32,000 nt of DNA from Fibrobacterota bacterium (lineage in GTDB: Bacteria; Fibrobacterota; Fibrobacteria; UBA11236). The translations under genes and the position numbers were made by a program. How positions within the stretch are numbered: position 1 is the first letter of the stretch; each line of letters starts with the position of its first letter. The notes beneath the pieces are model-generated. The model did not search any database, was not told the DNA's origin, and saw nothing but the letters and a program-made list of their open reading frames with translations. Shown here piece after piece: positions 8,381-25,907 of this stretch. Location of the stretch: positions 221,630 to 253,629 of the forward strand of contig CANKII010000004.1 in NCBI GenBank assembly GCA_947482115.1. The letters run 5' to 3'.

Positions 8381-11300
8381 TTATGCCACGACGTAAATGC
8401 GTGCTTGTTCGCCTTCAACATCCATATCGCAAAAAACCGCGCCCTCACCCGACTCATCAAAGCGGACGGAGGACGCCAAAACCTCGGCGGAAATATAAGT
8501 TAGATGGGCTTCCAGCGCTTGACGAAGCAGGGGTGTTGAACCTTTTAACAAGACGGAAACAGTGTCCGTCACGGCCAGCCCGGCCTCCTTGCGCAAGTTT
8601 TGGATTCGGCTGATGGTTTCCCGGGCCAGCATCTCTAATCGCAAGGCTTCGTCCACCACGGTATCCAGCGCCACCGTCAATTCCGGAGTAGCGGTGACCG
8701 CCAAATCGGGCGATACTTCACGGACAACTTGCAGGTCTTCCGCTGTTAAAGTCACTTCTCCCAAGTCCAAAGGCCGGCCTTCCAGAATGGCTTGGATATC
8801 GTCATGGCCAAGCTGGGCAATCTTGTCGGCCACAGGCTTCATATTTTTGCCCAAACGCGAACCCAAGGTTTTGAAATTGGCTTTGGCTTTATACTTCACG
8901 AAGGAAGACTCATCCAGAGTGACTTCCACGGACTTCACGTTCAGTTCATCGCGGATCAAATCTTCAAAAGAAACCATCCACTTGCGCTGCTCTTCCCCTC
9001 GCACCACGACAATCAATTGCTTTAAGGGCTGGCGATTCTTGATATTCCGTTCGGCGCGCAAGGTTCGACCCAGATTCACAGCCTGACGGGCCAACGCCAT
9101 CTTGGCGTTCAAGGTTTCGTCGAACAGGGCTGGGTCGAAAACAGGGTAATCGCAATGATGAACGGAAACGGTTGTGGCGGATACCGGTTCACGAACCAAG
9201 ATCTGATAAATCTCTTCCGACAAAAACGGAAGAAAGGGCGCGAGAACTTTGGAGAAATCCACAAGGATCCGGTACAACGTGGCATAAGCCCCGTTCTTGT
9301 CCTGATCATTTTCCGATTTCCAGAAACGGCGGCGCGAACGGCGGATGTACCAGTTGGTGAGATCATCCACAAATTCCACCAAGGCAGGAACGACATTATA
9401 AAGCCGATAGGCTTCCATCTCGACTTTAACACGGCTCAACAGCGATTGCAGATCGGAAAGAATCCAGCGGTCGAGTTCATTCTGTGAAACCAAATCCTGA
9501 CCGGGTTTCCAGGTCAGTTGGCCTTTGGATGCATCGGCATTTGCATAAGTGGTAAAGAGCGACAGGGAGTTCCACAACGGTAGCAGCACTGCGCGCACAA
9601 TGTTCTTCACTCCAACTTCGGAAAATTTGAGCTCTTCGCCTTTCACAGCGGCGGAGTCGATCATGAACAACCGCACCGCATCCGCTCCGACACGGTTGAT
9701 CAACTCATTCGGATCGGGATAATTGCGCAAACGCTTGCTCATCTTCTGGCCGTCTTCCGCCAGAATGATGCCGTTCACAATCACGTTCTTCATCGCGGGC
9801 TTTTGGAACAAGGCTGCGGAAAGCACGGTCAGCGTATAGAACCAGCCGCGCGTTTGATCCAAGCCCTCAGCGATGAAATCCGCCGGGAAAGATGCCTCGA
9901 AGACTTCGCGATTCTCGAAAGGATAATGGTTCTGCGCATACGGCATGGAACCGGATTCAAACCAGCAGTCGAGTACTTCGGGCGTGCGCTTGTAGGACTT
10001 GCCTTTGGCATTGAAGGTTTTTTTGTCCGATGTTTTCAGGACGATTTCATCCACGATGTGTTTGTGCAAATCTTCCACGTGAATTCCGGAAAGCGCTTCC
10101 AGTTCTTCGCGGCTGCCCACGCAAATCATGTCGCCGTCTTCTGCGATCCAAACCGGAATACAGGTTCCCCAAAAGCGATTGCGGGAAAGATTCCAGTCGC
10201 GCGCACCATCCAGCCATTTTCCGAAACGTCCATCGCGAATATGTTCCGGCACCCAGCGGATTTGCTGATTGCTGTCGATCATCCATTGCTTCAAAGTTTT
10301 GGTTACTGCGGGCCCTTCGACAGGCTCAGGGACCGCAGTAAGCTCCTTATCCAACGCGAGGAACCAATTCTTCTGCGCTCGATATAGCAGTGGCACATCA
10401 GTACGCCAGCAATGCGGATAGCTATGCTCAAATGTTTCGTGTTTGAAAATCCGGTTCTGGGATTTGAGATGATGGATAATGCTCTTGTCAGCATCCTTCG
10501 CTCCGACCGAAGTCCATTCGGGAACGAGATGCGTGAATTTCCCCTCGGCGTCCAGTGGATCGAAAAGACCCAGACTCTCCTTCATGCCGAGCTGGAAATC
10601 CTCTTCGCCAAAACTCGGTGCGATATGCACGGCACCCGTGCCATCGGAATCGCTGACGAAATCCGCAGCCAGCAAAGTGTATTGCCGTTCGCTCATATAC
10701 GGAGCGTATTCAAACAAAGGCTTGTAACGGCGGCCCAACAAGGCCTTCCCCATTACCTTATCCAACACCGGATCGTTTTCACCGAAATAAGACAACCGTC
10801 GCGACTCGGCGATCCAGTATTTCTTTTCCTGATGCGACACCAGGGTGTATTCCAGATCCTCTTTGATCGCGATGGCGAGGTTGCTCGGCAAAGTCCATGG
10901 CGTCGTCGTCCACACCAGCAGCACTTCGTCGGAACCTTCCAACGGAAAGCTGACGGTGATGGAAGGATCCTGCCGCATGCGATAGCCCTGATTGACTTCG
11001 AAGTTGCTGAGCGACGTCGCGAGCGCGGGGCTGTAGGGTTGAATGCGGTAGCCCTGATAAATGAGGCCCTTGTCGAAACATTGTTTGAACACCCACCACA
11101 CGGATTCCATGAAGGAGAGATCCATGGTTTTGTATTCGTTGTCGAAATCGACCCAGCGGCCCATGCGCGAAACGGTGCGGCGCCATTCCTGCGTGTACTT
11201 CAACACTCCGGCGCGGCAGGCTTCGTTGAAATTCCCGACGCCGTGGTTCTGGATGTCGCGCACGGTGTTCAGGCCGAGTTGATCCTGGATGATGTTTTCG

Positions 11301-11575
11301 ATGGGCAGGCCGTGGCAGTCCCAGCCGAAGCGGCGCTCGACACGGAAACCCTTCATGGTCCAGTAGCGCGGGACAATGTCCTTGATGGTTCCGGCGAGGA
11401 GATGGCCGTAATGCGGAAGCCCGGTCGCAAACGGTGGACCATCATTAAAGACGAAGCTTTTTTCCGCGGGCCGGCGGCTGACGCTTTCGCGAAAAGCATT
11501 ATCCTTTTCCCACAGCGCGAGAATGCGCTCTTCGAGCGAAGGGAACGAGGCGTCGGAATCTATGGGACGGAACAT
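8381..11575 (-). CDS. ileS: isoleucine--tRNA ligase (long, type-2 form, 1064 aa)
   Basis: The HIGH motif is PHYGHLLAG and the KMSKS motif is GQKMSKRLRNYPDP. The WDCHGLP, TTTPWTLPSN and DQTRGWFYT blocks are present. Confidence 0.97.
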   Translation of the reverse strand: MFRPIDSDASFPSLEERILALWEKDNAFRESVSRRPAEKSFVFNDGPPFATGLPHYGHLLAGTIKDIVPRYWTMKGFRVERRFGWDCHGLPIENIIQDQLGLNTVRDIQNHGVGNFNEACRAGVLKYTQEWRRTVSRMGRWVDFDNEYKTMDLSFMESVWWVFKQCFDKGLIYQGYRIQPYSPALATSLSNFEVNQGYRMRQDPSITVSFPLEGSDEVLLVWTTTPWTLPSNLAIAIKEDLEYTLVSHQEKKYWIAESRRLSYFGENDPVLDKVMGKALLGRRYKPLFEYAPYMSERQYTLLAADFVSDSDGTGAVHIAPSFGEEDFQLGMKESLGLFDPLDAEGKFTHLVPEWTSVGAKDADKSIIHHLKSQNRIFKHETFEHSYPHCWRTDVPLLYRAQKNWFLALDKELTAVPEPVEGPAVTKTLKQWMIDSNQQIRWVPEHIRDGRFGKWLDGARDWNLSRNRFWGTCIPVWIAEDGDMICVGSREELEALSGIHVEDLHKHIVDEIVLKTSDKKTFNAKGKSYKRTPEVLDCWFESGSMPYAQNHYPFENREVFEASFPADFIAEGLDQTRGWFYTLTVLSAALFQKPAMKNVIVNGIILAEDGQKMSKRLRNYPDPNELINRVGADAVRLFMIDSAAVKGEELKFSEVGVKNIVRAVLLPLWNSLSLFTTYANADASKGQLTWKPGQDLVSQNELDRWILSDLQSLLSRVKVEMEAYRLYNVVPALVEFVDDLTNWYIRRSRRRFWKSENDQDKNGAYATLYRILVDFSKVLAPFLPFLSEEIYQILVREPVSATTVSVHHCDYPVFDPALFDETLNAKMALARQAVNLGRTLRAERNIKNRQPLKQLIVVVRGEEQRKWMVSFEDLIRDELNVKSVEVTLDESSFVKYKAKANFKTLGSRLGKNMKPVADKIAQLGHDDIQAILEGRPLDLGEVTLTAEDLQVVREVSPDLAVTATPELTVALDTVVDEALRLEMLARETISRIQNLRKEAGLAVTDTVSVLLKGSTPLLRQALEAHLTYISAEVLASSVRFDESGEGAVFCDMDVEGEQARIYVVA
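10303..10341 (+). repeat. palindromic loop-conserved element, copy 1, in frame inside ileS
   Basis: TTACTGCGGGCCCT-TCGACAGGCTC-AGGGACCGCAGTAA has 14-nt arms with one G.A mismatch. It is read on the minus strand as ...LTAVPEPVEGPAVT... of IleRS. Confidence 0.8.
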
Positions 11576-15646: not shown

Positions 15647-16749
15647 GTGACCTCCAAGACCGGACCCTGAGCTTGTCGAAGGGACCGGGACAAAGCCCGA
15701 TTGCCCAATTGACCACAGGCCGCCATCGCATTATCACCTTTGGTGCCGCGAATGCGGCAATACTGACCGGCATCCGACAAGGTTTTGAAAAATTCCGTGA
15801 CTCGTTCTGGCGAAGGGCGAACGTAAGTTCCATCCAATCCCGGATTATAGGGGATGAGATTCACACAGGCATTGAGACCACGAAGATATTCGGCCAGCAT
15901 CAATGCGTGTTCGGGTGCGTCGTTCACGCCTTCAAGCAGCACATATTCCGCAAGAATGAAATCGTCGGGGTGATTCAAGGGCCAGCGCAACAGCGCATCC
16001 TTCAATTCCGACATGGACCACAGGCCATTCACTGGCATGATGGCCGCACGGATTTCGTCATTGGGTGCATTGAGCGACACCGCCAGATGCAAACGCTGCA
16101 GTCTCCCGGATGATTTGTCCGCTCCCACCAATTTTGCCAGTCGCTCAATACCAGTGACATGACCAACGGTGGAAACCGCGATGTTTTTCGCGGCGATGGC
16201 CAAACCGCGTTGATCCGTCAGAATGCGAATAGCATCGGCCACTGCATCGAAATTATCCATCGGCTCGCCCATGCCCATGAACACGATGTTTTCAACCGGT
16301 TCCCGTAATACATGACGTGCCACCATCACCTGCGCCACAATTTCCCCGGCGGTGAGATGACGGACGAATCCCATGCGGGCGGTTTCACAAAAACGGCAGC
16401 CCATTTTGCAACCCACTTGCGAGGATACGCACAACGTCTTGTATTTGCGCATGGGAATCACGACGGTTTCGCTTTCGAGTCCATCATGCAGTCGCAGCAG
16501 AAATTTGAACGTATCTCCATCGCCTTGTTTTCCTGCCAAAGGCGGAAGAGCAAAACTGAAATGTTGTTTCGCGCTTCGAGCCAAGGGCAGGTTCGCTACG
16601 AATTCCGGCAAACTCTCCGGATCAAAAACTCCGTCCCGGTACAATTTCTGGAACACGGCATCGGCGTGAAACACACCCTTGCCCAGTTTGCCATGCAATG
16701 CGGCAAACTTACGACATAATGCATCGTAAGGAAGGCTCAGAATATCCAT
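15643..16749 (-). CDS. rlmN: 23S rRNA/tRNA adenine-C2 methyltransferase RlmN (radical SAM)
   Basis: CVSSQVGCKMGCRFCETA is the CxxxCxxC cluster. NIVFMGMGEP is present, and the C-terminal AACGQL carries the catalytic Cys. The last 13 or so residues (SLRQAQGPVLEVT) are encoded by palindromic element copy 2. Confidence 0.93.
   Translation of the reverse strand: MDILSLPYDALCRKFAALHGKLGKGVFHADAVFQKLYRDGVFDPESLPEFVANLPLARSAKQHFSFALPPLAGKQGDGDTFKFLLRLHDGLESETVVIPMRKYKTLCVSSQVGCKMGCRFCETARMGFVRHLTAGEIVAQVMVARHVLREPVENIVFMGMGEPMDNFDAVADAIRILTDQRGLAIAAKNIAVSTVGHVTGIERLAKLVGADKSSGRLQRLHLAVSLNAPNDEIRAAIMPVNGLWSMSELKDALLRWPLNHPDDFILAEYVLLEGVNDAPEHALMLAEYLRGLNACVNLIPYNPGLDGTYVRPSPERVTEFFKTLSDAGQYCRIRGTKGDNAMAACGQLGNRALSRSLRQAQGPVLEVT
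15660..15688 (-). repeat. palindromic loop-conserved element, copy 2, forming the 3' end of rlmN
   Basis: CCGGACCCT-GAGCTTGTCGA-AGGGACCGG on the plus strand. The 9-bp arms have one central mismatch. The loop is the reverse complement of TCGACAAGCTC. Confidence 0.8.
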
Positions 16750-25035: not shown

Positions 25036-25064
25036 CCGGTCGTTTCGACAGGCTCAACGACCGG
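25036..25064 (+). repeat. palindromic loop-conserved element, copy 3 (intergenic, upstream of GIY-YIG)
   Basis: CCGGTCGTT-TCGACAGGCTC-AACGACCGG is a perfect 9-bp stem. It starts 1 nt after the TIM-barrel stop. Confidence 0.85.
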
Positions 25065-25123: not shown

Positions 25124-25468
25124 ATGCCCCATATGTATATACTCGAATGCGCGGACGGTACGTATTACACGGGCAGTACCGTGAACTTACGAGAGCGATT
25201 CTGGCAGCATCAAGACGGGATTGGTGCCAACTATACCGCAAAGCGATTACCTGTGAAATTGGTGTATTGGGAAGAATACCACCGCATTGATGATGTCTTC
25301 GAGCGTGAGAAACAAGTTCAGGGCTGGAGCCATGCGAAAAAGAAAGCGTTGATTGAAACCAACAACAAGGCGCTTCCCGATCTTTCCCGAAACTACATGC
25401 AACACGGTAGACCGGTCATTGAGCCTGTCGAAATGACCGACGAAGACGACACACGAAAGAAAAAATGA
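25124..25468 (+). CDS. GIY-YIG nuclease family protein (COG2827/YhbQ-like small URI-domain protein)
   Basis: MYILECADGTYYTGSTVNLRERFWQHQDG.GANYT...PVKLVYWEEY......EREKQVQGWSHAKKKALI covers the GIY..YTG, R..H and E catalytic blocks. The C-terminal GRPVIEPVEMTD is encoded by element copy 4. The start could also be the ATG at 25133. Confidence 0.85.
   Translation: MPHMYILECADGTYYTGSTVNLRERFWQHQDGIGANYTAKRLPVKLVYWEEYHRIDDVFEREKQVQGWSHAKKKALIETNNKALPDLSRNYMQHGRPVIEPVEMTDEDDTRKKK
25413..25439 (-). repeat. palindromic loop-conserved element, copy 4 (inside the 3' end of the GIY-YIG ORF)
   Basis: CGGTCATT-GAGCCTGTCGA-AATGACCG has an 8-bp stem. It is in the opposite orientation to copy 3. Confidence 0.85.
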
Positions 25469-25876: not shown

Positions 25877-25907
25877 ACCGGTCATTGAGCTTGTCGAAAT
25901 GACCGGT
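25877..25907 (-). repeat. palindromic loop-conserved element, copy 5 (intergenic, after the VOC gene)
   Basis: ACCGGTCATT-GAGCTTGTCGA-AATGACCGGT is a perfect 10-bp stem. It is in the same orientation as copy 4. Confidence 0.85.

Follow-up and report, generated by a model that had tools for sequence, protein, structure and literature searches.

The explanation that we consider likely for a 39-nt hairpin inside the isoleucyl-tRNA synthetase (IleRS) gene, ileS, of a Fibrobacterota bacterium (assembly GCA_947482115.1, contig CANKII010000004.1) is that a very short DNA hairpin repeat, dispersed in the genome, had one of its copies fixed in frame in this gene, the repeat family being in turn associated with a small GIY-YIG nuclease gene. 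The stretch analyzed (positions 221,630 to 253,629 of the contig, forward strand; 32,000 nt) is referred to here as the window, and feature coordinates refer to it. An event of this type is already known from the Rickettsia palindromic elements (RPEs); the cause here is a different and much smaller repeat. The unit would be about 20-28 nt long, with an invariant loop, GAGCYTGTCGA, a T-A closing pair, and a covarying stem, and its ileS copy would have been fixed in a length-variable loop of IleRS in a common ancestor of the window lineage and a sister lineage.

The hairpin within ileS

The host gene (8381-11575, reverse strand) encodes a type-2, i.e., eukaryote-like, IleRS of 1064 aa, per the open reading frame (ORF) list, its translation, Pfam searches (tRNA-synt_1 with E 2.5e-134, plus Anticodon_1 and DUF5915), and its best solved relatives, which are the human and yeast cytoplasmic enzymes, Priestia IleRS2, and Thermus IleRS (9W01, 8WND, 8C8V, 1ILE). 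The hairpin lies at 10303-10341 on the same strand. Its 14-nt arms, TTACTGCGGGCCCT (10303-10316) and AGGGACCGCAGTAA (10328-10341), pair at 13 of 14 positions (93% complementary, with one T-C mismatch) and enclose 11 nt, which in coding sense read GAGCCTGTCGA (10317-10327, reverse strand) and constitute the core of the repeat family, as identified by the genome counts given below. The hairpin is read in frame as (L)TAVPEPVEGPAV(T), residues 412-425, and the surrounding translation is ...NWFLALDKELTAVPEPVEGPAVTKTLKQWMIDSNQQIRWVPEHIRDGRFG..., in a longer stretch ...NWFLALDKELTAVPEPVEGPAVTKTLKQWM...; the peptide string TAVPEPVEGPAVTK of the window IleRS corresponds to the hairpin region. A palindrome lying in frame within the IleRS ORF, as the initial annotation had described it, is therefore confirmed by the pairing of the arms, the length of the ORF, and the Pfam and structural matches.

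The initial annotation had also placed a strong hairpin in the ileS mRNA, and this part did not hold up, since the RNA fold in its 79-nt context is unexceptional (z -1.29, with 20 of 200 shuffles folding equally well). Folded as single-stranded DNA, the hairpin far exceeds its shuffles in stability, with a z of -3.1 for the coding strand and -5.2 for the other strand. The repeat would act as DNA, and not as RNA or protein.

Inverted repeats can come from chimeric reads, and an artefact of assembly or sequencing had to be weighed accordingly, although no direct support for one was found. At least 24 contigs carry a predicted protein identical to the window IleRS; they come from several independent ENA assemblies, made from different samples and with different assemblers, and the loop DNA is identical in the three copies of the gene that we fetched from those assemblies, which makes an assembly artefact very unlikely. 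With the frame intact and a diverged, homologous copy present in a sister lineage, we give an artefact practically no credence.

A dispersed family with an invariant loop and covarying stems

The outer arm TTACTGCGGNCCCT is no commoner in the genome than a control sequence, but a short-word BLAST search of the genome with the whole hairpin exposed a family. The central 27 nt (query positions 27-53 of 79; window 10309-10335) recur at another locus with 100% identity, and stretches of 25-26 nt do so at four more; the repeat is the inner part, and the outer arm belongs to the ileS copy alone. The loop GAGCCTGTCGA occurs in 56 exact copies in the 2.7-Mb genome, versus 1 for its reversed control, and the family count rises to 103 copies when the GAGCTTGTCGA variant is included. 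A 13-mer, TGAGCYTGTCGAA, is found 90 times versus 1 for its control, and the window itself holds five family copies where 0.03 would be expected. These counts and identities show the ileS hairpin to be a member of the family.

Across the copies, the loop is invariant (GAGCYTGTCGA), and the T-A closing pair is present in about 87% of distinct copies (89/102). The next three stem pairs differ among copies yet stay complementary (CCC/GGG, CGT/ACG, CGC/GCG, TGA/TCA, CAT/ATG, GGC/GCC, CAC/GTG). When the whole set of 103 copies is scored, the four inner positions of the stem pair in 90.7% of cases compared to 62% in shuffles, and 107 double-sided changes were counted compared to 31 in shuffles, none of 500 shuffles reaching as high a number. 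On the 5' side, CCGGTC or GCTTGC lies beyond the inner stem in many copies. Outer stems are in many cases unique to their copy, e.g., AACCCACC-GGTCCCT-loop-AGGG-T-GGTGGGTT, and some copies are then followed by T-rich runs that resemble terminators, with many copies lying at gene ends. Rfam searches at the gathering threshold assigned no family in the window, and around the hairpin at E <= 1 returned just one chance CRISPR-DR match beside it.

A compound form was also observed in about 20 occurrences, ccggtccctGAGCCTG[cttgcggtGAGCCTGTCGAatccg]TCGAagggccgg, which in genes is read as PSTDSTGSPQAGSGTG; loci in this genome (G000) include C1:258971, C1:330483, C3:91042, C7:71828, and C7:102104. It looks like one unit put into the loop of another and then spread as a whole.

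The family is not confined to this genome. A 19-nt core, CCCTGAGCCTGTCGAAGGG, is present at at least 120 loci in GTDB species genomes, where about 4 would be expected by chance, and in at least 120 viral contigs. Among the GTDB matches listed are Actinomycetota, Chloroflexota, Cyanobacteria, Acidobacteriota, and Bacteroidota, as well as several Proteobacteria classes, Planctomycetota, Latescibacterota, Eremiobacterota, and a candidate phyla radiation lineage.

Nor is ileS the only gene to have been entered. Of the 103 copies, 50 are located 60 nt or more within ORFs of at least 150 codons, a count in which some of the long ORFs may be spurious. Hosts of in-frame copies confirmed by Pfam are ProRS, PheT (the beta chain of phenylalanyl-tRNA synthetase), RecN, a UvrD-type helicase (with two copies), an ABC-F protein, and an ABC exporter. 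The ProRS and PheT copies amount to an extra 8-10 residues (24-30 nt) that are absent from four or five congeners. Five of the six reading frames of the repeat consensus contain no stop codon, and the sole closed frame reads an invariant TGA at the junction of stem and loop.

Six residues without counterpart in relatives

Between the conserved segments WFLALDKE and TKTLKQWM, IleRS has a loop of seven residues, typically ITSAEGV, in 24 of 24 relatives, whose relatedness ranges from a shared genus to a shared class. The same loop in the window IleRS has 13 residues, LTAVPEPVEGPAV, i.e., six more (18 nt). The initial annotation had put the insertion at about 13 residues; in fact, the other seven are homologous to the loop of the relatives, as judged from the alignment. 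Its proposal to compare orthologues fared better. The extra segment is lacking in the relatives, including seven genomes in which the repeat core was not found and whose IleRS loops are all short (G004, G012, G015, G017, G019, G021, and G023); a homologous segment of equal length in such genomes, which would have spoken against an insertion, was not seen. The alignment thus shows the ileS insert to be the derived state.

Codon alignments with the 24 relatives, the sister, and an outgroup leave two blocks without counterpart in the relatives: codons V415-P418 (GTC CCT GAG CCT; 12 nt at 10322-10333, reverse strand) and codons P422-A423 (CCC GCA; 6 nt at 10307-10312, reverse strand). With the latter the 3' arm is complete, their sequence being the complement of the Thr-Ala codons on the 5' side. 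In the most economical alignment, the ancestral ...ACN TCN G-C GAA GGN GTN ACN is kept, and the additions are GTC CCT GAG CYT before GTC GAA GGG plus two codons after it, although the exact placement of the gaps may differ from this.

The codon pattern bears on the possibility that the palindrome arose locally, by a template switch or quasi-palindrome slippage, and resembles the family by chance. One half of each arm consists of ancestral codons and the other of new sequence that complements the opposite arm, and the genome holds no repeats of the arm motif by itself, both of which a local origin would produce. However, the new sequence has the exact 11-nt loop of the family along with its closing pairs, and an identity of 27 nt elsewhere in the genome is no coincidence; a chance likeness is for these reasons highly improbable, and a purely local template switch is ruled out by the genome-wide core counts and the loci identical over 25-27 nt. 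A template switch onto another family copy is a different matter, being a form of the explanation that we favor and no rival to it.

The loop is a general hotspot for length changes. Among 116 scored database homologues, 106 have the short loop, four have five extra residues, two have six, two have seven, one has 20, and one has 24; the homologue with 20 (P0048) carries three tandem ADGTSA-like units. Inserts unrelated to the repeat were also observed in the same loop, namely EPAPAQAGG (+7) in P0035/L015 (G010), APDASSAG (+5) in P0011, and KPDDGSAPQ (+5) in P0005.

The insert site lies between the WFLAL strand and the TLKQWM helix. In an AlphaFold2 model of the window IleRS (52 homologues; mean predicted local distance difference test score 77.6), residues 411-414 and 424-427 form two short strands, and the tip, residues 416-422, is of low confidence, with residues 418-420 scoring below 50. 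The modeled region fits a protruding, hairpin-like loop. The surface loop proposed in the initial annotation thereby gains a little support and no more than that, given the low confidence at the site and the solved IleRS structures, which are without the whole segment (a gap of 14-17 residues).

One gain, retained, and a second invasion of the same loop

Among the relatives and database homologues compared, the six-residue insert is shared only by P0002, a sister lineage, whose ileS has it in the same place, orientation, and frame and is 83% identical to the window ileS in DNA and 89% in protein. Its loop DNA, ATC ACG TCG GTC CCT GAG CTT GTC GAA GGG CCG ACG GTT ACT, contains the second of the two common loop variants. 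With the loop masked, a tree unites P0001 (the window) and P0002 as sisters with a support of 97/99, and the next relatives, P0003 and P0006, are without the insert. Since the insert is exclusive to these sisters, it is most simply read as a single gain by their common ancestor, and tree and alignment together show a single gain followed by retention. A degenerate 38-nt pattern intended to retrieve more carriers of the ileS insert found no match in JGI metagenomes or GTDB genomes.

Another lineage of Fibrobacterota, P0014 (contig L056), has 24 extra residues in the same loop. The inserted DNA consists of an antisense compound copy (...CCTTCGACGGATTCGACAAGCTCACCGCAGGCAGGCTCAGGA..., read as HPSTDSTSSPQAGSG), followed by a simple sense copy (CACGGTGAGCCTGTCGAACCGT, read as HGEPVEP). 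P0014 groups with the insert-free P0006 in the loop-masked tree, and the content and tree position of its insert show a second, independent invasion of this loop. A comparable case was observed in PheT, where G000 has an antisense copy (C2:154245, DASTGSAR) and G007 (L062), in the matching place, a degenerate copy in sense (REPVEVGG). Loops that are hit repeatedly are either places where insertions survive or loops that attract the element.

Given such repeated hits, the window and sister lineages could have gained the element independently, in which case the shared insert would say nothing about age or retention. The invasion of P0014, the two different copies at one PheT site in two genomes, and the outer stems of the two IleRS carriers, which differ in register, all point in this direction. 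Against it, the two carriers are sisters and agree in position, orientation, frame, and net length (+18 nt), 23 of their 25 central nucleotides are identical, and the known independent events (P0014 and the PheT of G007) differ in length, orientation, and content. We regard two separate gains as quite improbable and a single gain as the better account of the shared insert.

The comparison of the two carriers also bears on whether the hairpin has been kept for a function in ileS, be it as a DNA site for the nuclease or some other protein, an mRNA structure with an effect on translation or decay, or a peptide that alters IleRS, which would make it exapted rather than a passenger. In this essential gene, the insert persisted while the DNA of the two lineages diverged by about 17%. 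Pairing of the outer stems is preserved despite changes at two neighboring positions in each arm (ACTGCGG/CCGCAGT in the window, ACGTCGG/CCGACG in the sister), and the window stem is three pairs longer than that of the sister, reaching into the flanking Leu and Val-Thr codons. Such both-arm differences could reflect selection for pairing, or one arm having been re-copied from the other. The apparent compensation is a single comparison between two carriers, and the 3' arm is shifted by one base relative to the codons, which fits re-copying of an arm equally well. Moreover, the inserted loop has diverged more quickly than the protein as a whole (9 of its 13 residues identical versus 89% overall), and a codon test for extra nucleotide conservation of the core between window and sister was not significant (P about 0.2), the test being a rough one that used an ungapped alignment though both genes have indels elsewhere. 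A fast-changing peptide and a core without extra conservation fit a tolerated passenger. Taken with the unexceptional RNA fold and the 106 of 116 homologues that do without any insert, this leaves exaptation unlikely in our estimation, and the ileS copy would instead be a neutral passenger.

A candidate partner nuclease in the window

The window encodes a single-domain GIY-YIG nuclease of 114 aa (25124-25468, forward strand; identified as an ORF matching Pfam PF01541 with E 2.2e-15), which is a candidate partner of the repeat family. Family copies bracket the gene. One, ACCGGTCGTT-loop-AACGACCGG, has its core at 25045-25055 (reverse strand), 69 nt upstream of the gene and just past the stop codon of the preceding gene; another, ACCGGTCATT-loop-AATGACCG, lies within the 3' end of the ORF itself (25421-25431, forward strand); and a third, GACCGGTCATT-loop-AATGACCGGT, follows the next gene downstream (25887-25897, forward strand). 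The C-terminal tail of the protein (GRPVIEPVEMTD; window 25400-25440) was observed to be encoded by a family copy, so that the repeat is fused in frame to its presumed partner enzyme. The gene is effectively single-copy, with one other, distant match in the genome (27% identity, E 2.4e-6), and its homologues in two genomes of other genera (G013 and G025) are likewise bracketed by family copies. In an alphaproteobacterial metagenome-assembled genome (CAUZWC010000239.1; L105:3957-4278), a GIY-YIG homologue with 39% identity (E 1.5e-15) was observed to start 40 nt from an exact 19-nt core, which suggests that the pairing of repeat and nuclease also exists outside Fibrobacterota. The Pfam match is to the general GIY-YIG domain only, and a search of NCBIfam gave no match.

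By analogy with the Ssn nucleases discussed below, the hairpin family is probably tied to this small nuclease. The repeat would be its cognate single-strand hairpin, which the enzyme may bind or cut.

A further family copy in the window, of the GAGCTTGTCGA variant, was found by the core scan at 15669-15679 (forward strand).

Comparison with known palindromic repeats

The initial annotation had likened the element to the RPEs, which are about 150 bp long, comprise ten families, code for a conserved peptide tens of residues in length, and occur in Rickettsia alone (PMC10969869). The resemblance is real insofar as a palindromic, dispersed repeat lies in frame in many unrelated housekeeping genes, here including those of aminoacyl-tRNA synthetases, and adds a short peptide without breaking the gene. 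However, the unit here is about 20-28 nt, adds 6-10 residues, combines an unchanging loop with stems that vary, is translated in five frames, and occurs in many phyla as well as in viral contigs. With a hairpin of 39 nt and a net insert of 18 nt, it also falls short of the RPE length of about 100-150 bp with a conserved peptide. Judged by the published descriptions of RPEs, then, the ileS element is not one of them in size, host range, or loop; what stands of the comparison is the dispersed family and its in-frame copies in unrelated housekeeping genes.

The Ssn nucleases are closer in another respect. They bind the NTS/SRM hairpin in its single-stranded DNA form, cutting next to it (Chenal et al. 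2025, Nat Commun 16:2388, PMC11893778), and their systems have a repeat-gene-repeat architecture, with hairpins of 20-50 nt in tens to hundreds of copies per genome (PMC11893778). The NTS/SRM has a conserved stem and flanks with little variation and is rarely found inside genes (PMC11893778). The system described here shares with Ssn a scattered hairpin repeat whose copies flank a small GIY-YIG gene of one domain, and differs in that the loop is conserved and the stem variable and in that about half of the copies lie deep inside long ORFs.

The family also invites comparison with REP/BIME elements. These elements (REPINs) are mobilized by RAYT transposases, and repetitive extragenic palindromic sequences (REPs) are extragenic by definition. 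The likeness consists of a short hairpin repeat in about 100 copies with self-complementary stems, many of them at gene ends in terminator-like outer stems. In contrast, the copies here are often inside genes, and no Y1/RAYT transposase was found in this 99.4%-complete genome (PF01797 gave no match, while control genomes did match). Position counts over the 103 copies showed no conserved GTAG-type head 5' of the hairpin, the 5' consensus being CCGGTC or GCTTGC. As for miniature inverted-repeat transposable elements, the whole unit here is one hairpin, and no target-site duplication is visible at the ileS, ProRS, or PheT sites when these are compared with much-diverged empty sites. Literature searches with the sequence, with the peptide strings, and with further terms retrieved no description of the repeat, the sequence and peptide strings returning unrelated primers alone.

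Mode of entry, and points that weigh against the explanation

The host would tolerate the insert because the 18 nt gained overall leave the frame intact, being a multiple of three, because five of the six frames of the repeat are free of stops, and because the loop takes insertions of 5 to 24 residues in other lineages. Two routes of entry can be proposed. In the first, a patch would have been copied from another family copy through microhomologies, which is possible since the ancestral TCG GCC GAA GGG already matched the repeat flanks CGG...CGAAGGG; this would give most of the insert. In the second, the unit would have been inserted at the center of a short, pre-existing palindrome. If the ancestor had Ala-Asp-Gly at this place, as some relatives do, its ACG TCG GCC GAC GG would hold the 12-nt palindrome CGTCGGCCGACG, with the unit exactly central, and a further loss of 2 nt would be needed to restore the frame.

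A bolder variant, which we put forward as a doubtful possibility, is that the stems are rebuilt at each site from the target flank by fold-back copying, or that the unit homes to the centers of short palindromes or to hairpin tips, the agent in either case being the bracketed GIY-YIG nuclease, with hairpin DNA in single-stranded form as its substrate. Such a process would explain why a fixed loop is found with unique, complementary outer stems, why window and sister differ in two positions on both arms, and why the loops of IleRS and PheT have been hit repeatedly. If true, it would amount to a transposition-like mechanism undescribed for any GIY-YIG enzyme.

An intergenic family copy of this genome, at C2:57849, was observed just past the stop codon of a conserved gene and within a 9-bp outer stem. 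At the corresponding position, G006 (L315) has a quite different hairpin of 8 bp (AGTAGGGG...CCCCTACT); the hairpin is kept and its sequence replaced. A second site tried for an empty-site comparison gave no alignment across the copy.

Several points weigh against the explanation of the ileS hairpin as an in-frame copy of a nuclease-associated repeat. The nearest insert-free ileS genes, only about 78% identical, are too distant to define the inserted unit, any target duplication, or the mode of entry, and at the intergenic copy the different hairpin of the nearest relative, G006, leaves the unit undelimited. The neutrality of the six extra residues is an assumption, and the AlphaFold2 model is weak near the insert, with the region around residues 384-470 too uncertain to speak to contacts with tRNA or substrate and the surrounding catalytic core modeled poorly. 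Other points concern the nuclease, whose presumed link to the repeat is one of association. Nine of 12 loci with GIY-YIG homologues in relatives are without a nearby family copy, and across 30 relatives the copy numbers agree just loosely with the presence of the gene: G019 has the gene and no cores, and G002 has 19 cores and no homologue at E <= 1e-8. In other phyla, two of the 120 listed loci with copies have a GIY-YIG homologue within 8 kb. The best solved relatives of the protein are the UPF0213 proteins 1ZG2 and 1YWL, so the enzyme may not belong to the Ssn clade, cd10448. Lastly, the published SRM pattern, HGTCWYN(0-2)YYVSBRHN(0-5)WNVSBRGN(0-2)RNCYNB, overlapped none of the 103 copies, and its 20 matches in the genome compare with 20-23 in shuffled genomes.

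Significance

The in-frame colonization of essential genes by selfish palindromes is, on this evidence, not peculiar to Rickettsia, as it also occurs in a free-living lineage of Fibrobacterota, with a repeat of about 20-28 nt. The ileS copy provides a dated example, with one gain kept over about 17% DNA divergence, and this gain along with the second invasion identifies this loop of type-2 IleRS as naturally permissive. The repeat is also a common source of odd peptides in predicted proteins (VPEPVEGP, PSTGSGT, LSLSKG, LRQAQGP, and FDRLR), which annotators could recognize. If the link to the GIY-YIG enzyme is true, the family would widen the range of hairpins that accompany Ssn-like single-stranded DNA nucleases.

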